Positions 10,689 through 33,890 are shown, numbered from the stretch's first letter. The stretch is DNA of 37,666 nucleotides from Candidatus Faecenecus gallistercoris (GCA_018713065.1 DVFU01000064.1:1-37666); one strand, 5' to 3'. Program-made: numbers and translations. Notes: generated by a model from the letters alone, not told the origin.

Positions 10689-11642
10689 TTGAAGAAGATT
10701 TGGAATACAAGAACGGACTTAATTACCGAGCAAGAAGATCAAAAGAAAAACGAGAAAACTTATGAAATTGATGGGATTTCTGTAACGAAATCTTTGATGA
10801 ACGGAACGTATTATACGATTCGATTTGAAGATTTGTCGAATGTTTTAGAACGAAAAAATTTAATTCATGCTCTTACAAAGACATTTTCGGAACTGTTTCA
10901 ACAACTGAATTTATCTTTTGAATCATCGTGTTTGGTGGTGGGATTAGGGAATCGTGAGTCGACACCGGATTCTCTTGGTCCAATCGTGCTACAGAATTTG
11001 ATTGTAACCAAGTATTTATTCGATCAAAATACGATTACAATGTTAGATAAATATCGGAACGTTTCATCATTTGCTCCTAATGTGACGGGAGTTACAGGTT
11101 TAGAGACCATCGAGTTAATCAAAAGTGTCATTACGACCTTTCATCCGGATTTTGTCATTGCAATCGATGCTCTGGCATCTTCTAAAATCGAAAATATTTT
11201 AAAAGTAATCCAGATTACAGATACAGGGATTCATCCTGGCTCTGGAGTAGGGAACAATCGTGGCGAATTATCGGGCAATACGTTGGGAATTCCTGTCATT
11301 GCCGTCGGTGTCCCTACTGTCATCGATGGAGTCACTATCGTCTACGATACCATCCGCTATTTGTACCAAAAGATCAGTTATACCAAAAAGAATTTCAAGA
11401 AAGAAAAACTCTCTCTTTTTTCTAACTCTCATCATAAATACCAAGATGAACTTTCAGAGGATGAAAAGAGTAAGTTATTAGGAAGCGTCGGAACTCTCAC
11501 AGAAGGCGATTTAAAGCAATTATTAAAAGAAGTTTTAGTCGATGAAAATCTGATTGTCAGTCCAAAAGAAATCGATTTCGATATTAGTAAATTAGGAAAT
11601 ATCTTGAGCGATGCTCTCAATAAAAGTTTGCACCGGTTATAG
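10689..11642 (+). CDS. gpr: Germination protease (GPR endopeptidase)
   Basis: LVVGLGNRESTPDSLGP, PDFVIAIDALA, TDTGIHPGSGVGNNR and IPVIAVGVPTV match Bacillus Gpr almost motif for motif. TTG start 6 nt after AGGTGA. Confidence 0.9.
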   Translation: MKKIWNTRTDLITEQEDQKKNEKTYEIDGISVTKSLMNGTYYTIRFEDLSNVLERKNLIHALTKTFSELFQQLNLSFESSCLVVGLGNRESTPDSLGPIVLQNLIVTKYLFDQNTITMLDKYRNVSSFAPNVTGVTGLETIELIKSVITTFHPDFVIAIDALASSKIENILKVIQITDTGIHPGSGVGNNRGELSGNTLGIPVIAVGVPTVIDGVTIVYDTIRYLYQKISYTKKNFKKEKLSLFSNSHHKYQDELSEDEKSKLLGSVGTLTEGDLKQLLKEVLVDENLIVSPKEIDFDISKLGNILSDALNKSLHRL

Positions 11643-11696
11643 TTCGACAAAATGATACTACTGTTCCTGCTACAATGTTTGTAGAAAGGAAGTGGT

Positions 11697-12569
11697 ATTA
11701 GGAAAAAGAAACGAATCTATGGCATTTTATTTTTAGGATTACTAGCGACTCTTGTTTTTTATTTTGCAAGACGGAGTGATCGTTCACTCGTAGAGATTAC
11801 TTCTACCTTTGCAACAAAAGGAATCGATTTTTCTTCTGATGCTACTTCTGAGCATTCTTCTTTTGATCCGCTAGAGTCTATTTTAGAAGGAACGTTTCAA
11901 ACATATGTGTTTTCTCCTCCGACGTCAACACCTTCTCCCGATGGTAAATTATTTCAGCCCCTGATCTACTTTTACAATAGTCATCCGGGAGAAGAGTATC
12001 AGGCCGATATGGTGAATGGTTTTGGAGTGGCACCCAACGTGACAGTAACAAACTATATTTTACAAGAAGAATTCAAAAAAAGAGGAATCGATGTCGTCGT
12101 CGAAGAGCGAAGTGCAACGGATGTATTAAATGCCAACGGTTGGAAATATGCTAGGAGTTACGATGCCACTAGAACGTTTTTAGAAAGTGCCATCTTGGAG
12201 TATCCAACTTTAGAGTACTTTGTAGATTTACATCGTGACTCTGTCTCTAGAGGAATTTCTACGGTTACGATTGGAGACACTGATTATGCCAAAGTGATGT
12301 TTTTAATTGGTATGGAAAATACTGGTCATGCGGCGAACGAAGCCTTAACCGTTCAAATTGAACAATACTTAAACAGTCATTACGAAGGGATTTCGAGAGG
12401 AATTTACCGCAAGAGTGGGGCTGGAGTGAACGGCGTTTACAATCAAGATTTTTCTGGTAATACGATTTTGATAGAGATTGGTGGTATGGAAAACACATTA
12501 GAAGAAGTCTATCACACTTGTCTTGCAATCGCAGAAGCACTTTATGCTGTGATGGTAGGTGATGCATGA
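11697..12569 (+). CDS. spoIIP: Stage II sporulation protein P (start codon uncertain, probably ATT)
   Basis: FVDLHRDS, VMFLIGMEN and ILIEIGGMEN are SpoIIP/amidase-like motifs. The frame is open from 11685 and encodes a signal anchor (IRKKKRIYGILFLGLLATLVFYFA) before the first canonical start (GTG 11907). ATT at 11697 lies 6 nt after AAAGGAAG. Confidence 0.7.
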   Translation: MRKKKRIYGILFLGLLATLVFYFARRSDRSLVEITSTFATKGIDFSSDATSEHSSFDPLESILEGTFQTYVFSPPTSTPSPDGKLFQPLIYFYNSHPGEEYQADMVNGFGVAPNVTVTNYILQEEFKKRGIDVVVEERSATDVLNANGWKYARSYDATRTFLESAILEYPTLEYFVDLHRDSVSRGISTVTIGDTDYAKVMFLIGMENTGHAANEALTVQIEQYLNSHYEGISRGIYRKSGAGVNGVYNQDFSGNTILIEIGGMENTLEEVYHTCLAIAEALYAVMVGDA

Positions 12570-12916: not shown

Positions 12917-12952
12917 CTATTTTTATTGTATAATAGATGTAGGAGGCTAGTT

Positions 12953-13708
12953 ATGAGAACGACATTTTTAGAAAAACGACTATTTTCCTTTTTTCTTTCT
13001 TTATTTGTATTATTTGGATGTTTCTTTTTCTTTTGGCAAAGGGATCGTTCGATTGGCTTCGATTTTGAATTTTTCTCTTATTCTATTGCGTGTATGATTT
13101 TGTGCTTTTTGTTTTATCGTTTGCTCTTATTTTTATTTTCTTTCTTAAAACGAAGCGAGACTGGTTCTTATTATTCTTCTAAATATGTACATTCTCATGG
13201 TGTACAGGAGGTTTTAAAAACATCTCGAATTTCGTTTCGGACTTGTTTAAAGAAAGATTTGGAAGATTTAGAAAAAAGACGTTACATCACGAAAGAGAAA
13301 GATTCGTATCACGTTACGACAATTTTAAAAAACTACGGTGTATTCGATTCTCACTTGCGTGTCATTACCGATTATCTACAGGGGGGCGATAAGTCGTTCA
13401 AAGACTTTTTTACGCCTGCTTTTAAAAAATGTTATTTAAAACTTTTGACATCGGATATGGAGCAGGCAGGACTTTTAAAAAAACAAGGGATTTTCTTAGA
13501 CTTTTTATCTTACATTATTTTTGTTTTGTATATTGTATTGCTAGCATCTTTTTCGTTACATGGCTTTTATTTACCGGAAATATCGGGACGTTTTGGACAA
13601 CTATTTTTGTTTTTTCTAATTACTTGTTTATTTCAATTTGTTTTCTTTCATTTTGTATTTCGGAATTCTTATCAAGTTACTTCGTTTGGAAAATCTTATA
13701 AAATCTAG
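12953..13708 (+). CDS. Hypothetical polytopic membrane protein with a central soluble (winged-helix-like?) segment
   Basis: ATG at 12953 sits 6 nt after AGGAGG. There are 2 N-terminal and 2-3 C-terminal TM helices flanking a ~110-aa charged region (LEDLEKRRYITKEKDSYHVT). It has its own terminator. Confidence 0.6.
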   Translation: MRTTFLEKRLFSFFLSLFVLFGCFFFFWQRDRSIGFDFEFFSYSIACMILCFLFYRLLLFLFSFLKRSETGSYYSSKYVHSHGVQEVLKTSRISFRTCLKKDLEDLEKRRYITKEKDSYHVTTILKNYGVFDSHLRVITDYLQGGDKSFKDFFTPAFKKCYLKLLTSDMEQAGLLKKQGIFLDFLSYIIFVLYIVLLASFSLHGFYLPEISGRFGQLFLFFLITCLFQFVFFHFVFRNSYQVTSFGKSYKI

Positions 13709-13721
13709 ATTATTTGATTCG

Positions 13722-13752
13722 ATATGGAATGATGATTCGTTCCATATTTTTT
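13722..13752 (+). terminator. Terminator after the 12953-13708 membrane protein gene
   Basis: ATATGGAA-N10-TTCCATAT followed by TTTTTT. Confidence 0.65.
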
Positions 13753-13754
13753 AG

Positions 13755-13783
13755 TTGCTTTTTTTCTTCTTTCTCGTTATACT
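13755..13783 (+). promoter_or_regulatory. Putative promoter of the ThyX-like gene
   Basis: TTGCTT-17 nt-TATACT, between the preceding terminator and the AGGAGG SD. Confidence 0.45.
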
Positions 13784-13829
13784 TTTATTTAGATAAGGGT
13801 AAGAAGCGGGAAATAGTAGGAGGAAATAT

Positions 13830-15062
13830 ATGGGAATTAACAATTTAAAAGTCAATTTACTAGAAAATACACCGTTTTTAAACAGTGATGGTACGTTCGA
13901 TTTAAAAAGAGCCATGACGCATTCTGGTCATATCGCTGGAATTTGTTACAATCAGAATGGTCTTGCAGCGTCTTTTGAGGAGAGCCCTGATAAGACGGAA
14001 CATCGTGTCAATATGAATGCGAACAATGGTCATCAATCCGTATTTGAACATATTGGCTTGACGTTAGATATCGAGAATTCACCTAAGATGTTCAACATGG
14101 TTTTAAATAATGAAGGACAGTACAATGCCAGTGAGAGAAGTTTGCGGTATACGAAGCCTAGTGCCCATGCCGGGTTATCGGATAGGGAAGTAGAACTTTA
14201 CGATAAGTGGTATCACATCTTTTTGGATTTGATCGAACAAAATCTCGGGACTGCTTTACCAGACCGAAAGAAGAGAACGTTGGCGCAAGAAAATGCGAGA
14301 TCGATGACGAGTGTCTTTTATCAAACAGAACTTGTCTATACTGTTCCATTAGCACAACTAAATCGGCTTTTAATGATGATGGAAGTGTATGAAAAAGAAA
14401 GCAAAGGTACATCGTTTGATGAGAGATTAATCGATTCTTTTCATGCTTTCCGTTCTGAATGTGAACGTCTTCATCTAGTGGATGAGCGTCTTCTTACGAA
14501 TTTTAAGAATCGTCATTTGCGTCTTTTTGCTAAGCCGGGAGATGATCTTGATAAAAAGTTCTTCCGCGATGAATTTGGAGAAAGTTATTCTACTACGTAT
14601 ACAGAGTCTTTTGCTGCATTTGCCCAGGCCCAACGACATCGTACGATTTCTTACCAAATTCAAATTCCTGAAGGAGATAAGTACGGTTACTTCGTACCGG
14701 AGTTATTATCCTCTAAGTGCAAGCACGATGGGTATGATGGTCGTGACTTGACGCGGGAGTGGCAACAAGATATTCAGAGCATTCGTTCTGTCTATCCGAA
14801 CGGTATGAAAATTGCTGTTCAAGAACGTGGCACGTTAGAAAATTTCATCGAAAAATTAAAAGAACGGGAATGTACTGCAGCTCAATATGAAATTTGGAAA
14901 GATACCGATGATACTTTGACTGAGTACATGGAAGCGTTAGACCGTACGAAACATCCTGCTGCTGATAGACTGAGACCTTACACCAAGACCATGCGCTGTG
15001 GATTTCCTGGTTTTACTTGTACGAACCCTTGCGGCAATCCGTCTAAAAATAGAATCGTATAA
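13830..15062 (+). CDS. ThyX-like (flavin-dependent thymidylate synthase fold) protein, internally duplicated, 410 aa
   Basis: AGGAGG SD. First half: GHQSVFEH ... SERSLRY ... ENARSM. Second half: AQRHRTISYQ ... ERGTLENFIEKLKER ... AAQYEI. Both halves align by eye to T. maritima ThyX (GHETPFEH, RHRIASYNELSGRY, NARSLMNFLNLR, HAQWEI). Confidence 0.7.
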   Translation: MGINNLKVNLLENTPFLNSDGTFDLKRAMTHSGHIAGICYNQNGLAASFEESPDKTEHRVNMNANNGHQSVFEHIGLTLDIENSPKMFNMVLNNEGQYNASERSLRYTKPSAHAGLSDREVELYDKWYHIFLDLIEQNLGTALPDRKKRTLAQENARSMTSVFYQTELVYTVPLAQLNRLLMMMEVYEKESKGTSFDERLIDSFHAFRSECERLHLVDERLLTNFKNRHLRLFAKPGDDLDKKFFRDEFGESYSTTYTESFAAFAQAQRHRTISYQIQIPEGDKYGYFVPELLSSKCKHDGYDGRDLTREWQQDIQSIRSVYPNGMKIAVQERGTLENFIEKLKERECTAAQYEIWKDTDDTLTEYMEALDRTKHPAADRLRPYTKTMRCGFPGFTCTNPCGNPSKNRIV

Positions 15063-15085
15063 CACAGAATTTCTGTGTTATTTTC
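15061..15085 (+). terminator. Terminator after the ThyX-like gene
   Basis: AACACAG-AATTT-CTGTGTT followed by ATTTTCATTT. It starts inside the stop codon. Confidence 0.65.
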
Positions 15086-15099
15086 ATTTGTTTCCAGAT

Positions 15100-15128
15100 T
15101 TGATTTCTACCTGTTTTTGTGATACAAT
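15100..15128 (+). promoter_or_regulatory. Putative lepA sigma-A promoter
   Basis: TTGATT, a 17-nt spacer ending in TGa, then TACAAT (15123-15128). It lies downstream of the ThyX-like gene terminator. Confidence 0.55.
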
Positions 15129-15166
15129 GTACTAAGTTTTAGAAAAATTGACAAGTAGGTGACGTT

Positions 15167-16966
15167 ATGAAACAATCGAATATCAGAAATTTTTCCATCA
15201 TTGCTCATATCGATCACGGAAAAAGTACGTTAGCGGATCGAATTTTAGAAGTGACAGGTGCCGTTTCTAAACGAGAAGCAAAAGAACAGATGTTAGATAG
15301 TATGGATATCGAACGGGAGCGTGGCATCACGATTAAACTGAATGCCGTCCAACTTTCGTATCATCATAATGGCGAAGATTATTTGTTAAACTTGATTGAT
15401 ACTCCGGGGCACGTCGATTTCTCCTATGAAGTGAGTCGTAGTTTAGCGGCTTGTGAAGGGGCAATTTTAGTGGTCGATGCGGCGCAAGGAATCGAGGCTC
15501 AGACATTAGCCAATTTATATTTAGCGATGGAACACGATCTGACGATTATACCGGTCATCAACAAGATCGACTTACCGAATGCGGATATTCCGAAAGTAAA
15601 GGGAGAACTCATCTCCAATTTAGGATTTTCGGAAGATGAAATTATTTTGACGAGTGCTAAAACGGGTGAAGGAATCGAAAGTTTAGTAGAAGCTGTCATC
15701 GAACGGATTCCCGCGCCAAAAGGAGATGCCAAAGATTCTTTACAAGCATTAATATTCGATAGTTATTTCGATTCTTATCGCGGTGTCGTCGTACTGGCTC
15801 GGTTAATGGCGGGAAGTCTTGCCGTAGGTGATAAAATTTTGTTTATGAAGACTGGTGCCAGTTATGTTGTAACGGAACTATTTACGATGAACCCGAAAGA
15901 AGAGAAAATTTCTTCAGCAGTGGCAGGGGACGTCTGTTACATCGTCGCGTCGATTAAAGATATTCAAGACGTACATGTCGGAGACACCATTACCCATATG
16001 GACCAGCCGGCAACGGATGCGATTACGGGATATCAACCGATGAAACCGATGGTTTACTGTGGACTTTATCCGATTGATTCTACTAAGTTTGACGAGTTAC
16101 GAGAATCGTTAGATAAATTAAAATTAAACGATGCATCTTTATTTTATGAAGCAGAGACATCGAAAGCGTTGGGATTTGGTTTCCGCTGTGGTTTTTTAGG
16201 ACTTTTGCATATGGAAATCACATTAGAGCGAATTGAACGAGAATTTAAAATTCCTTTGATTGCAACGGCTCCATCCGTTATTTATCATGTTACACTGACG
16301 ACTGGCGAGACCATTGAAATCGATTCACCAGTAAAACTTCCGGATCGAACGTTGATTAAAGAAATTGAAGAACCATTTGTCAAAACGAGTATTTTTACAC
16401 CATCCACTTACATTGGTCCAATTATGGAACTATGTCAAGGAAAACGTGGTGTTTATATTGGAATGGATTATATCGATCAGACGCGAGTCGACATTCATTA
16501 CGAATTGCCATTATCTGAAATCATTTACGATTTCTTCGACCGATTGAAGAGTTCTACGAAAGGATATGCCTCTTTCGATTATGAAGTAATCGGTTACCGT
16601 GCTTCTTCTCTCGTACGATTAGATATCTTATTAAATGGAGAAATCGTCGATGCTTTTTCTATTATCGTTCATAAAGATTTTGCTTATGCACGAGGACGAA
16701 GTATCGTATCTAAACTTCGTGAAGTAATTCCTAGACAGTTGTTCGAGGTTCCGATTCAGGCGGCCATTGGTGGTAAAGTAATCGCAAGAGAGACCATCAA
16801 AGCCCTTCGTAAGGACGTTCTTGCTAAATGCTATGGTGGCGATATCACAAGAAAACGAAAACTGTTAGAGAAACAAAAAGAAGGTAAAAAGAGAATGAAA
16901 CAGGTTGGAAACGTAGAAATTCCACAGGAAGCATTCTTATCCGTTCTAACTATGGATGAAAGGTAG
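15167..16966 (+). CDS. lepA: Elongation factor 4
   Basis: [33 protein letters not shown] and the C-terminal LepA domain ([23 protein letters not shown]). 599 aa. Confidence 0.97.
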
Positions 16967-16975
16967 TGTAACAAA

Positions 16976-17644
16976 ATGGAACTTGGGAAAAAGAAAGAAA
17001 TCACAAAGAAGGCGGCAGAACTTGCCATTAAAAATCCTTCTCTCAGTATGAGGGCATTGGCAAGAGAAGTAGGAGGGACTACCTCTACGACTCTCAAAAA
17101 ATTCTTCGATACCATTTTGCCGGAATATTATCCGGATTTGGCTTTGCAAATTAAGGAATCAAAAGAATCATTTCAAAAGAAAAGTGAAGAAGAAAAATAT
17201 CATAAGAGTAGAGCATATCAAAAACGTAGAAGGGAACTCGTTAAAATTGAAGAAGCAAACGAGGTTGCCGAGTACATCATTCGCCATCATGCGACGATGA
17301 AACAAGCATCGTCTGTCTTTGCTAGACCGATTGCCAATTTACAACGAAGTTTAAACCTACTTAGAAAAGAAAATGCTCAGGTACGACAAGATTTAGACCG
17401 GGTGTTTGCTGAGAATAAGAACAATTACTATCAGAAATTAGGGACTCTTACGAAAGAGAGAATTTCGATGATTCGTAAATGTGTCGATTTTATCAATCAT
17501 CATCCGGAATATTCGTCTTTACTGATTAAATCTTTACATATTTTCCCAATCCATTTGTTATCCTTAGATTCATACGTGTTAACATCACGTAGTTTGACGG
17601 GGACTGTTTCCAAGGAACGTAGTTATGAAACAGTTGCCAACTAG
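16976..17644 (+). CDS. Putative DNA-binding protein with two SpoIIID-like HTH repeats
   Basis: aa 10-60 (KKAAELAIKNPSLSMRALAREVGGTTSTTLKKFFDTILPEYYPDLALQIKE) parallels B. subtilis SpoIIID (KIGKYIVETKKTVRVIAKEFGVSKSTVHKDLTERLPEINPDLANEVKE). A second, weaker copy lies at aa ~95-145. The 3' end overlaps hemW by 20 nt. Confidence 0.5.
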   Translation: MELGKKKEITKKAAELAIKNPSLSMRALAREVGGTTSTTLKKFFDTILPEYYPDLALQIKESKESFQKKSEEEKYHKSRAYQKRRRELVKIEEANEVAEYIIRHHATMKQASSVFARPIANLQRSLNLLRKENAQVRQDLDRVFAENKNNYYQKLGTLTKERISMIRKCVDFINHHPEYSSLLIKSLHIFPIHLLSLDSYVLTSRSLTGTVSKERSYETVAN

Positions 17645-18722
17645 TCTCTATATTCATATCCCGTTTTGTAGAACGATCTGTGCTTATTGTGATTTTTGTA
17701 AATATTACAATTATCCTAAACTGATGGAAAGTTACTATCCGGCACTGTTAGAAGAACTCCGTCATGTTCCCGTTCATCCGATGAAGACAATCTATATTGG
17801 TGGTGGGACTCCTTCTTGCATTCCAAATGGGATGTTAGAGGATTTACTCATTCATTTGGAGCCTTATTTTAGTGACGAGATGGAGTTTACCATCGAATGT
17901 AATGTCGAAGATATCGATGAAGAGTTGTTAGTACTTTTAAAACGACATTCTGTCAATCGTCTTTCAATCGGGTTACAAACATTTCAGTATTCTCTTTTAG
18001 AGAAGATTGGACGTTCGGTCGGTCCCGTTGAAGAGAAGATTCGTCTTGCAAAACAGTACTTTCAAAATATCAATGTCGATTTGATGTATGCGTTACCGGG
18101 TGAAACGTTAGATGATTTGCAAGAGGATTTACAAAAGTTTTTGGCTTTGGATGTACCACACATTTCTTGCTACTCTTTGATTTTAGAAGAGAACACAGTA
18201 TTTTCTAATCAACATGTAACGCCAGTCGATGAAGATACGGATTTTGAAATGTATCAGATGATTACTAAGACATTAACAGATGCGGGATATCTTCATTACG
18301 AAGTATCGAATTATGCGAAAGCGGGTTACGAATCTAAACACAATTTGGTCTATTGGCATAATGAAGAATACTACGGTATCGGACTTGGGGCATCTTCTTA
18401 TGTGGATGGTTATCGTATGACAAATACACGTAGTCTCAATCACTATCAAGAAGGGAACATCGTAACAGAGCGAGAATTCGTATCTATCGATGATCAGATG
18501 GACTACGAGATGATTTTAGGATTACGTACTTTAAAAGGGGTATCGATTTCGCACTTTTTTCAAAAATATCATCGCAACATTACAGATATCTATGATATAG
18601 TAGATTTATTAGAGAATCAGTTACTGGTTCAAAAAGGGGATTATCTTGCGATTCCGGAAGATAAGATTTATATTTCGAATACGATTTTAGTACAATTTTT
18701 AAGGAGGGATTCGAGTGGATAA
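17625..18722 (+). CDS. hemW: Radical SAM heme chaperone HemW (HemN-like)
   Basis: LYIHIPFCRTICAYCDF (CxxxCxxC), IGGGTPS. 365 aa. The position after lepA matches Bacillus. Confidence 0.9.
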   Translation: MKQLPTSLYIHIPFCRTICAYCDFCKYYNYPKLMESYYPALLEELRHVPVHPMKTIYIGGGTPSCIPNGMLEDLLIHLEPYFSDEMEFTIECNVEDIDEELLVLLKRHSVNRLSIGLQTFQYSLLEKIGRSVGPVEEKIRLAKQYFQNINVDLMYALPGETLDDLQEDLQKFLALDVPHISCYSLILEENTVFSNQHVTPVDEDTDFEMYQMITKTLTDAGYLHYEVSNYAKAGYESKHNLVYWHNEEYYGIGLGASSYVDGYRMTNTRSLNHYQEGNIVTEREFVSIDDQMDYEMILGLRTLKGVSISHFFQKYHRNITDIYDIVDLLENQLLVQKGDYLAIPEDKIYISNTILVQFLRRDSSG

Positions 18723-19296
18723 AATTAAATGTTTTGAAAAAGAAATGTCCTACATCCAAAATCCAGATTATTTAGTAGATTTTCAATATTTGGTATCGAA
18801 CTTACCAGATTATTTTTTTGAAATTCCAGCATCTTCCACAGGAAAGTATCATCCGCGTTATGCTTTGGGAACTGGCGGATTGTTGAGACACACCAAAGCT
18901 GCTGTTCGGATTGCTTACGAGTTGTTAGCAGATCCAGTCATCGGTGATAAGTATACGAGTGATGAGAAAGATTTGATGTTAATTGCACTTTGTTTACATG
19001 ACGGTTTGAAATCAGGCAAAGATCATAGTAAATACACACAGTTCGACCATCCACTTTTGATGGCGAATTGGATTGAGGAAGAAAAAGAACATCTTCATTT
19101 TAACGACGAGGAGATTGCTTTTTTACAATCCGTTATTGCATCTCATATGGGTTGTTGGACGAAAGACTACGATGGCAATGAAGTATTACCAAAACCGAAG
19201 ACTAAATATCAAAATTTCGTTCATATGTGCGATTATTTAGCAAGTAGAAAGTGTATTTTACTGGAATTTGACGAAAATAATAATGTCATAGGATAA
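18715..19296 (+). CDS. HD-domain metal-dependent phosphohydrolase (193 aa)
   Basis: GTG start 7 nt after AGGAGG, overlapping the hemW stop by 8 nt. The H...HD...H...D pattern is present: SSTGKYHP, LLRHT, CLHDGLK, ASHMG, HMCDYLASRK. Confidence 0.75.
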   Translation: MDKIKCFEKEMSYIQNPDYLVDFQYLVSNLPDYFFEIPASSTGKYHPRYALGTGGLLRHTKAAVRIAYELLADPVIGDKYTSDEKDLMLIALCLHDGLKSGKDHSKYTQFDHPLLMANWIEEEKEHLHFNDEEIAFLQSVIASHMGCWTKDYDGNEVLPKPKTKYQNFVHMCDYLASRKCILLEFDENNNVIG

Positions 19297-19309
19297 ATAG
19301 GGAGGCTTT

Positions 19310-19978
19310 ATGAAAGGAAAATTAATTGTCATTGAGGGTAGCGATTCTTCTGGAAAGCATACGCAAGGAACGATGCTTGTAGAGGCATTAAACAAAAGTG
19401 GGAAAAAGGCGGTTTTGTTATCATTTCCAACATACGATAGCCCGACTGGTCAAATTATTGCTGGGTCCTTGTTAGGAAAAGAAGGGTATGGACCATGTTT
19501 GTTTCCGGAAGGAAGTAGCAACATCGATCCTCATATCGCATGTCTATATTATGCAGCAGACCGAAAGTACAACATTCCTAAAGTGGAATCTTACCTGCAA
19601 GATGGATACGATGTTGTACTCGATCGTTATATCAGTTCTAACATGGCTCATCAGGGTGGTAAGATTTTAGATAAAGACGAGCGCTTCAACATGTTTCAAT
19701 GGATCGATCGTTTAGAGTATTGGCTGTTGGGATTACCGAAAGCAGACAAGACCATTTTTCTTCATATGCCGTATCAAAAATCTTTGGAACTTGCCAAAAA
19801 GAAACCGGCCATCGATCAAGTCGATGACGATGTCGCGTATTTAAAAAATTCAGAACGTGCATACATCGAATTATCCGAGTTATATCATTGGGACCGGGTC
19901 GAGTGTACCAATTTCGATGGTTCTTTAAAATCTCGGGATGAAGTTCACAAAGAAATTTTATCTTTATTAGAGCAATAA
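19310..19978 (+). CDS. Thymidylate kinase-family protein (atypical P-loop/LID)
   Basis: P-loop LIVIEGSDSSGKHTQ, DRY motif VVLDRYISSNMAHQGG. The overall order aligns by eye with human/vaccinia-type TMPK (LIVLEGVDRAGKSTQ ... RFPERSTEIGK ... DRYAFSG). GGGAGG SD. Confidence 0.7.
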   Translation: MKGKLIVIEGSDSSGKHTQGTMLVEALNKSGKKAVLLSFPTYDSPTGQIIAGSLLGKEGYGPCLFPEGSSNIDPHIACLYYAADRKYNIPKVESYLQDGYDVVLDRYISSNMAHQGGKILDKDERFNMFQWIDRLEYWLLGLPKADKTIFLHMPYQKSLELAKKKPAIDQVDDDVAYLKNSERAYIELSELYHWDRVECTNFDGSLKSRDEVHKEILSLLEQ

Positions 19979-32829: not shown

Positions 32830-32894
32830 TCTTAGGTATAAAAACGTAGTAGAATGCAACACTATAAATGTAGTTTAGTTGGGAGATGATTTTT

Positions 32895-33890
32895 ATGAAA
32901 CTCAAACACAAACTACATTTTTTTCTGGCCTTCATCTTGTTTATTCTACCAATTTCTGTTTGGGCAATTCCAGAATACGTCGTTCCGGGTGGCGAAAACA
33001 TCGGTATTAAAGTCAGTAATGAAGGCGTCATCGTCGTCGGATTTTACGAAGTTGACGGTGTAGACGTCGGTAGAGAATCGGGACTCGTTTTAGGCGATGT
33101 CATTAAGAAAGTAAATGGAGAGGCTGTCTCTTCCATCGATGACATGGTCGCTAAAATGGAAACAGGCGATATTGAAAATACGCGAATTACATATGAACGA
33201 AATGGGAAAGAATACGATACGACACTTTCTGTAACGAAAGATGATAATGGTGTTTATAAAACCGGATTGTATGTCAAAGATTCAATCCTCGGAATCGGAA
33301 GCATTACGTACATCGATACGTCCTCTGGTATTGCAACATATGGCGCGTTGGGACATGAAATCGATGAGAAAAATACGGCTTATAAAATCGAAGTTAAAGA
33401 AGGAAAAATCTTTGCGTCCACAGTGACGGGAATTACGAAAGGTACGGCTACGACGCCAGGTAGCAAAAATGCACGCTTTGATTCGTCAAAAATATTAGGA
33501 AATATAAAGGCAAACGAAGCGTCCGGCATTTACGGAACATACTCTGAAGAAGTTACAAAAGAGGCGATGAAAGTTGGTACAAAGGACGATATTCAAATTG
33601 GTCCAGCCACCATCTTAACGGTTTTAAATGGTGACGAAGTAGAGGAGTTCGATATTGAAATATTAAATTTAGACCCGGATCATGAAACCAAAAATATTCT
33701 ATTTCAAGTGACGGATGAAAGATTACTCGAAAGTACAGGCGGAATTGTTCAAGGCATGAGTGGTAGTCCGATTATTCAAAATGATATGATCATTGGTGCT
33801 GTAACTCATGTAGTTGTAAGTGACCCAGCTAAAGGCTACGGAATTTATCTTACGACTATGCTAGATGAAGCAGAAAAACAAGGAACTTAA
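32895..33890 (+). CDS. spoIVB: SpoIVB signalling serine peptidase (S55)
   Basis: Signal anchor, PDZ domain (GLVLGDVIKKVNGEAV), catalytic region (GALGHEI ... GGIVQGMSGSPII). I prefer ATG at 32895 over 32886 because of its spacing from GGGAG. Confidence 0.85.
   Translation: MKLKHKLHFFLAFILFILPISVWAIPEYVVPGGENIGIKVSNEGVIVVGFYEVDGVDVGRESGLVLGDVIKKVNGEAVSSIDDMVAKMETGDIENTRITYERNGKEYDTTLSVTKDDNGVYKTGLYVKDSILGIGSITYIDTSSGIATYGALGHEIDEKNTAYKIEVKEGKIFASTVTGITKGTATTPGSKNARFDSSKILGNIKANEASGIYGTYSEEVTKEAMKVGTKDDIQIGPATILTVLNGDEVEEFDIEILNLDPDHETKNILFQVTDERLLESTGGIVQGMSGSPIIQNDMIIGAVTHVVVSDPAKGYGIYLTTMLDEAEKQGT

Follow-up and report, generated by a model that had tools for sequence, protein, structure and literature searches.

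The window, i.e. the whole 37,666-nucleotide stretch of Candidatus Faecenecus gallistercoris DNA that was analysed, carries on its plus strand an open reading frame (ORF) for a 410-aa protein, which runs from an ATG at position 13830 to a TAA ending at 15062. This gene, encoding a relative of the flavin-dependent thymidylate synthase ThyX, and its immediate signals are as follows:

13817-13822, plus strand: Shine-Dalgarno sequence AGGAGG, 7 nt before the ATG (read from the sequence)
13830-15062, plus strand: coding sequence of the two-domain ThyX-like protein, 410 aa (ORF, Pfam, structure model, Foldseek)
15059-15081, plus strand: terminator-like hairpin followed by a T-run (sequence scan)

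The strong Shine-Dalgarno sequence and the gene's own terminator, both proposed in the initial annotation, were thus found; no sigma-70-like site was detected in the upstream intergenic region (13749-13829), and the promoter-like element proposed for the gene is not supported. Directly 5' of the gene lies an ORF (12926-13708; TTG start, no Pfam match) for a predicted multi-pass membrane protein of 260 aa, followed by a terminator-like hairpin of its own (13721-13748).

The protein is composed of two domains and a linker, which precede a C-terminal tail:

13830-14474, plus strand: N-domain, a complete ThyX fold, aa 1-215 (Pfam Thy1 at aa 35-179; hhalign against a Thermotogae ThyX profile)
14475-14579, plus strand: inter-domain linker, aa 216-250, with conserved K226 and R228 (model secondary structure, conservation)
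14580-14984, plus strand: C-domain, a trimmed ThyX fold without the H53 region and SxRY, aa 251-385 (Foldseek of the C-half, Pfam Thy1)

In a search of the whole protein, Pfam Thy1 (PF02511) scored 53.4 bits (cut-off 24.8), with aa 35-179 placed on profile positions 16-160, and the N-half matched the Thermotogae ThyX profile in hhalign with a probability of 96.6% (E=5e-10). The C-half alone matched Thy1 just under the cut-off (22.2 bits, E=1.4e-4; aa 260-357 on profile positions 67-176), and the same profile was matched by 12 of 21 C-halves of the family. Of the two partial Thy1 domains that had been expected, one was therefore clearly recovered and the other narrowly missed the threshold. Against the ThyX profile, the C-half gave a weak hhalign match (probability 1.6%), in which RHR was set on RHR and AAQYEI on HAQWEI. 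The AlphaFold model of the full-length protein (pLDDT 91.9, pTM 0.90), searched against the PDB with Foldseek, retrieved ThyX only among the 50 matches listed; the same was true for the 50 matches listed for a model of the C-half alone (pLDDT 77), with a best E of 2e-4, a TMq of ~0.5 and up to 155 aligned columns. Given the Thy1 match and the Foldseek result of the C-half, the RHR and AAQYEI alignment and the full-length model, we conclude that the protein is a fusion of two ThyX-fold domains, i.e. a fused pseudo-dimer. The possibility of one ThyX domain carrying a large insertion was rejected: modelled by itself, the C-half adopts the ThyX fold, and it matches Thy1. The internal duplication claimed initially holds at the level of the fold and fails at the level of sequence: no similarity between the N-half and the C-half was detectable with hhalign (probability 0.3%), and an internal repeat demonstrable from sequence alone was consequently rejected. 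The distance to known enzymes is considerable. The thyX equivalog TIGR02170 (NCBIfam) scored 35.6 bits, below its curated cut-off of 87.9, no match was obtained in PDB sequence searches either with the single protein or with a profile of the C-half, and the family profile gave weak PDB matches to the N-domain only (best E=0.009).

Residue equivalences were assigned from hhalign alignments and the sequence of Thermotoga maritima (Tm) ThyX, which was verified against 1kq4 and in which R174 was located via the R174K mutant entry, and conservation was counted among 138 family representatives with pairwise identities of 50% or less. The following motifs were delimited:

14028-14051, plus strand: GHQSVFEH, aa 67-74, with H68 and S70 equivalent to Tm H53 and T55, respectively (hhalign, conservation)
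14106-14150, plus strand: N93-N94-E95-G96...E102-R-S104-L-R106-Y107, in which the RHR position is degenerate and the subsequent SxRY intact, with E102, S104, R106 and Y107 equivalent to Tm E86, S88, R90 and Y91 (profile search, hhalign, conservation)
14289-14300, plus strand: E154-N-A-R157, equivalent to Tm E144 and R147 (hhalign, conservation)
14634-14642, plus strand: R269-H270-R271, the sole RHR in the protein, equivalent to Tm R78-H79-R80 (hhalign, conservation)
14865-14891, plus strand: R346-E-C348-T-A-A-Q352-Y-E354, with R346, C348, Q352 and E354 at the positions of Tm R174, D176, Q180 and E182 (hhalign, conservation)

The motifs quoted in the initial annotation all lie at the residues given there (GHQSVFEH at 67-74, SLRY at 104-107, ENAR at 154-157, AAQYEI at 350-355), as do N94-E95-G96 at the RHR position and the RHR at 269-271 itself. 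In the N-domain, N94-E95-G96 replaces R78-H79-R80 and M184 replaces R174, while the H53 loop, S88/R90 and SxRY have no equivalents in the C-domain; the contiguous signature RHRxxSxxxxSxRY is found in neither domain alone. Each of the retained residues is present in 133-137 of the 138 representatives, and the position of S70 is occupied by S in 126 and by T in 10. When the two domains are pooled, equivalents of H53, R78-80, S88, R90, Y91, R147 and R174 are all present and at least 96% conserved, and the equivalent of R165 is missing, the position of Tm R165 (R190 in Mycobacterium tuberculosis, Mtb) being taken by A175/Q176 in the N-domain and by E337 in the C-domain. Its loss from both domains implies that FAD binding cannot be fully canonical. 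Two earlier assignments in the C-half had to be given up: IRSVYP had been proposed as the equivalent of AR..LP, and its R318 is not among the conserved columns; R333 is conserved in just 44 of 138 representatives, the true equivalent of R174 being R346.

In solved ThyX structures, each active site draws on three subunits (PMC6514825). Subunit A provides RHR together with R199 (Mtb) or R174 (Tm) and holds FAD; subunit B provides S71 and R190 (Tm T55 and R165), of which R190/R165 is a FAD phosphate ligand from the third subunit; and subunit C, with S105, R107 and Y108 (Tm S88, R90 and Y91), holds dUMP (PMC6514825). The residues retained in the C-domain are exactly the subunit-A set, and those of the N-domain are the subunit-C set plus the B-type S70. 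The initial claim of two ThyX domains with complementary motif loss is supported by Thy1 and Foldseek, the pattern is kept across the 138 representatives, and the retained sets map onto this division of labour (PMC6514825). By symmetry with the ThyX tetramer, the natural reading is that a dimer of such fused chains would contain two complete and two dead sites, i.e. half the usual number; the dead ones would be those at which the part of subunit A fell to an N-domain.

A further peculiarity of the family is a set of cysteines:

13944-13946, plus strand: C39, a cysteine of the N-domain aligned with Tm S30 and present in 136 of 138 representatives (conservation, hhalign)
14997-15032, plus strand: cysteine tail C390-x6-C397-x3-C401 (conservation)

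The Cys-rich C-terminal segment RCGFPGFTCTNPCGNP corresponds to aa 389-404. Besides C39, the cysteines C348 (137 of 138), C390 (132), C397 (138) and C401 (136) were counted among the representatives, and C348 lies two residues after the catalytic R346. In T. maritima ThyX, S30 and D176 take the places of C39 and C348, and the Cys tail is lacking. The C-terminal cysteines, which had been described initially as foreign to classical ThyX, are indeed family-specific, being near-invariant here (132-138 of 138) and absent there. In the structure models, pLDDT values for the tail (aa 386-410) were ~90 and 70 in the full-length context, and 59 and 41 when the N-domain was omitted. This suggests that the tail packs across the domains, since without the N-domain its placement is no longer confident. 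The five nearly invariant cysteines suggest a putative metal centre, either Fe-S or Zn, two residues from R346.

The family comprises 2432 matches at E<=1e-3, almost all of 395-420 aa, and forms 393 clusters at 50% identity (E<=1e-30). All of its genome matches come from gut MAGs of uncultured Bacilli, Erysipelotrichaceae, 'Tenericutes' or Mycoplasmatota, and proteins clustering with those encoded nearby in the window bear the names Candidatus Faecenecus gallistercoris or Bacillota MAG; cultured Mollicutes have been reported to be without ThyX (PMC7226160). Some longer members (P0174, P0219, P0236 and P0245; 474-529 aa) bear a charged, helical-looking N-terminal extension of 70-110 aa before the ThyX domains. 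For the 529-aa member P0236 a chlamydial identity was considered and rejected, as its rpsF-ssb-rpsR context is Firmicute-like. A phage origin was likewise rejected, since a tblastn search against 50,697 phage records was empty even at E<=10.

Clustering of the neighbours was performed for 80 loci and the window. In 26 of 77 loci, the family gene is directly followed by a thymidylate kinase gene, tmk (Pfam PF02223); it is directly preceded by a serine hydroxymethyltransferase (SHMT) gene, glyA (PF00464), in 7 loci and by a small HD-domain gene in 8. Two of these neighbours are also encoded in the window:

18715-19296, plus strand: 193-aa HD-like protein (orthologues with a weak HD-domain match; the window copy has no Pfam match)
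19310-19978, plus strand: thymidylate kinase tmk (Pfam, neighbour clustering)

Both are situated 4 kb downstream of the two-domain thyX, past lepA and hemW, the HD-like gene being immediately 5' of tmk; it is possibly a pathway-linked nucleotide phosphohydrolase. The order in the window (13830-19978) is thyX-lepA-(HTH)-hemW-HD-tmk, whereas lepA-...-hemW-HD-thyX-(tmk) is the order in eight other loci (L002, L003, L005, L007, L012, L016, L021 and L028), in the first of which tmk is displaced. The comparison with these relatives indicates that the thyX-like gene was moved upstream of lepA in the lineage of the window. The gene inserted between lepA and hemW (16976-17644) encodes a 222-aa protein with a weak, sub-threshold match to a SpoIIID-like HTH. 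The remaining genes of the window have housekeeping or sporulation functions (holA, rnhC, uvrC, mutL, miaA, rpsT, gpr, spoIIP, mutS, xseA and spoIVB). The presence of gpr, spoIIP and spoIVB (10689-12569 and 32886-33890), together with a length of ~1.4 Mb for the longest related contigs, suggests a small-genome spore-former. Neither thyA nor folA nor a canonical thyX was found in the window or in the 81 loci examined, which represent ~1% of each genome.

Other tandem ThyX proteins were sought by structure. In a Foldseek search of viral models, full-length two-domain matches were obtained with proteins of Microcystis phage LMM01 and of Bacillus phage SP-15 and with two unnamed phage proteins. 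These include (i) the 'thymidylate synthase' of LMM01 (BAF36111; 491 aa, TMq 0.60 over 479 columns) and (ii) the 'thymidylate synthetase' of SP-15 (BFVD A0A127AWA5; 413 aa, TMq 0.46). In SP-15 DNA, a hypermodified base that is synthesised as a nucleotide takes the place of thymine, and the two-domain ThyX-like enzyme of this phage could be a C5-alkylating variant. The LMM01 gene (AB231700, 15717-17192) encodes GAGQERSTRY at ~aa 114 and RHRSIWRY at ~aa 363, and no Cys tail. It has 37 relatives of 460-590 aa; among 16 that were checked, RHR is located at aa 336-433 in 15 and SxRY at aa 89-156 in 11. Relatives of the LMM01 type are known from Microcoleus, Tunturiibacter and Vibrio jumbo phages, and a cellular one of 528 aa was found at locus L084 (4458-8714) in the order dUTPase - DUF1599 - tandem thyX - dCMP deaminase - AAA_17 kinase. 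At this one locus, the LMM01-type gene thus lies between dut and the dCMP deaminase gene in a compact dTMP-supply cluster.

The LMM01 clade and the Bacilli family share the same split, with SxRY and no RHR in the N-half, and RHR and no SxRY in the C-half. Their N-halves are related (hhalign 96.9%), and their C-halves barely align (probability 3%). The A2 profile aligned with the LMM01 protein in the N-domain only (hhalign probability 8%), and tblastn detected no BLAST-level similarity between the two groups. Members of the LMM01 clade are longer, lack the Cys cluster and end in a conserved tail, PDPxSRxEFxDRS, which differs from that of the Bacilli family. A shared duplication event is one possibility; the N-halves are not nearer to each other than to canonical ThyX, and the C-halves give no information on this point. 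A literature search on tandem ThyX or on the chlamydial architecture returned nothing relevant beyond a remark of Valas & Bourne (2009) on Chloroflexi ThyX with a domain duplication, described as 'not characterized' (PMC3224940); the LMM01-type clade may possibly be this duplicated Chloroflexi ThyX. In the comparison with canonical, LMM01-type and PolB-type ThyX and in the literature searched, no characterised two-domain ThyX clade containing the Bacilli family was found. The fused ThyX with a split signature is therefore a recurrent and already noticed, apparently uncharacterised architecture, of which the Bacilli clade is, as judged from its sequences, a distinct version: shorter, with a five-Cys centre and without BLAST-level similarity to the LMM01 clade.

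Compared with the canonical homotetrameric ThyX/FDTS (EC 2.1.1.148; T. maritima TM0449, M. tuberculosis Rv2754c), whose fold is common to both domains, the protein has in total equivalents of all of H53, R78-H79-R80, E86, S88, R90, Y91, E144, R147, R174, Q180 and E182, and its pathway context (tmk, glyA) is alike. It differs in being one 410-aa chain of two diverged domains with a split signature, so that no more than half of its sites can be complete, and also in the loss of the R165 equivalent, the five family-specific cysteines with the C-terminal tail, and the TIGR02170 score below the cut-off. PolB, a ThyX paralog acting as a UMP C5-methylase in polyoxin biosynthesis, likewise has the ThyX fold and deviates from the canonical sequence model. 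PolB is a single-domain protein of ~240 aa encoded in an antibiotic gene cluster, whereas two domains and a housekeeping region near dTMP-pathway genes are found here. The chlamydial long ThyX (~529 aa), biochemically characterised as an FDTS, is far longer than canonical ThyX and may also be of the tandem type.

Considering the above, the gene probably encodes a working flavin-dependent thymidylate synthase (dUMP + CH2-THF -> dTMP + THF) that takes the form of a single-chain pseudo-heterodimer. Such an enzyme would have arisen by duplication and fusion of an ancestral ThyX gene, with the catalytic residues divided between the copies: the C-domain would have kept those needed for holding FAD and for activating uracil (RHR 269-271 and R346), and the N-domain the dUMP clamp (E102, S104, R106, Y107, E154 and R157) along with the H68/S70 loop, which in ThyX normally comes from a third subunit. 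Two chains would then assemble into a pseudo-tetramer, in which each C-domain would seed one complete site using both N-domains, giving two functional and two degenerate sites. The metal centre, presumably formed by the one N-domain cysteine, the one following R346 and the three of the tail, would staple the tail across the domains beside the active site. The dTMP produced would pass to thymidylate kinase, whose gene may often be co-transcribed, and SHMT would recharge THF. Ordinary dTMP synthesis appears to be the likeliest function because the family gene commonly adjoins tmk and sometimes glyA, and the housekeeping surroundings in the window, taken with this tmk/glyA context, point to ordinary dTMP synthesis with CH2-THF.

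The changed substrate that had been raised as an option in the initial annotation is disfavoured, given that the uracil-activating R106 and R346 and the phosphate ligands are kept and that adjacency to tmk and glyA is repeated. We regard it as improbable that the enzyme modifies UMP, dCMP or CMP at C5 in the manner of PolB, or adds another C5 group. Such a shift in specificity would be in line with the score below the thyX equivalog cut-off, with the conserved N93 at the flavin-binding RHR stretch and the lost R165, with the two-domain ThyX-like protein of Bacillus phage SP-15, and with the existence of ThyX paralogs with altered substrates, e.g. PolB (PMC5954106); however, the tmk and SHMT neighbours indicate dTMP and CH2-THF, the dUMP ligands identified in solved ThyX are all kept, and the gene is chromosomal, in a housekeeping region where neither an antibiotic cluster nor one for DNA modification is close by. 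It is very improbable that the protein is a catalytically dead ThyX serving as a nucleotide- or flavin-binding regulator or scaffold. The residues for one composite site are 96-99% conserved in very divergent members and exactly complementary between the domains, which is the pattern expected of catalysis and not of a relic, even though neither domain alone bears the full signature and similarity to characterised ThyX is low (the best PDB profile match mentioned above).

The active pseudo-heterodimer could be refined further if the cysteines ligated a redox [4Fe-4S] or [2Fe-2S] cluster, through which ferredoxin or flavodoxin electrons would reach FAD. This is a tentative proposal, which we consider somewhat unlikely, and the same holds for the part of it that views the enzyme as an NADPH-independent ThyX fitted to strict anaerobes. 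The irregular spacing (C348...C390-x6-C397-x3-C401, plus C39) is unlike that of CxxC zinc knuckles, C348 is only two residues past R346, all hosts found are gut anaerobes, and the modelling of the tail, confident in the full-length context alone, suggests an inter-domain site. Nevertheless, a structural Zn site accounts for the same conservation, Pfam and NCBIfam scans of the protein gave no Fe-S family or motif, and no Fe-S ThyX was found in the literature searched. The most far-reaching version is doubtful: an Fe-S cluster would bridge the domains beside R346 and relay low-potential electrons from ferredoxin or flavodoxin to FAD in a naturally asymmetric ThyX of one chain, of whose sites two would be live and two repurposed, and this enzyme would be the main source of dTMP in a large group of uncultured gut Bacilli. 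If this were true, it would represent the first thymidylate synthase to depend on an Fe-S cluster and to dispense with NADPH.

ThyX serves as a target for antibiotics, and the sites on which its chemistry relies are each assembled from three identical subunits. A natural split fusion is in effect a ready-made 'heterotetramer' experiment, which can reveal which subunit contributions are separable and which predicts a two-site enzyme. A conserved cysteine centre by the catalytic arginine could bear on the way in which flavin reduction takes place in vivo, above all in anaerobes. It is noteworthy that the family, which comprises thousands of sequences, is labelled 'FAD-dependent thymidylate synthase' by domain match only and fails the equivalog model; confirming or correcting this label affects the metabolic reconstructions of many uncultured gut Bacilli.
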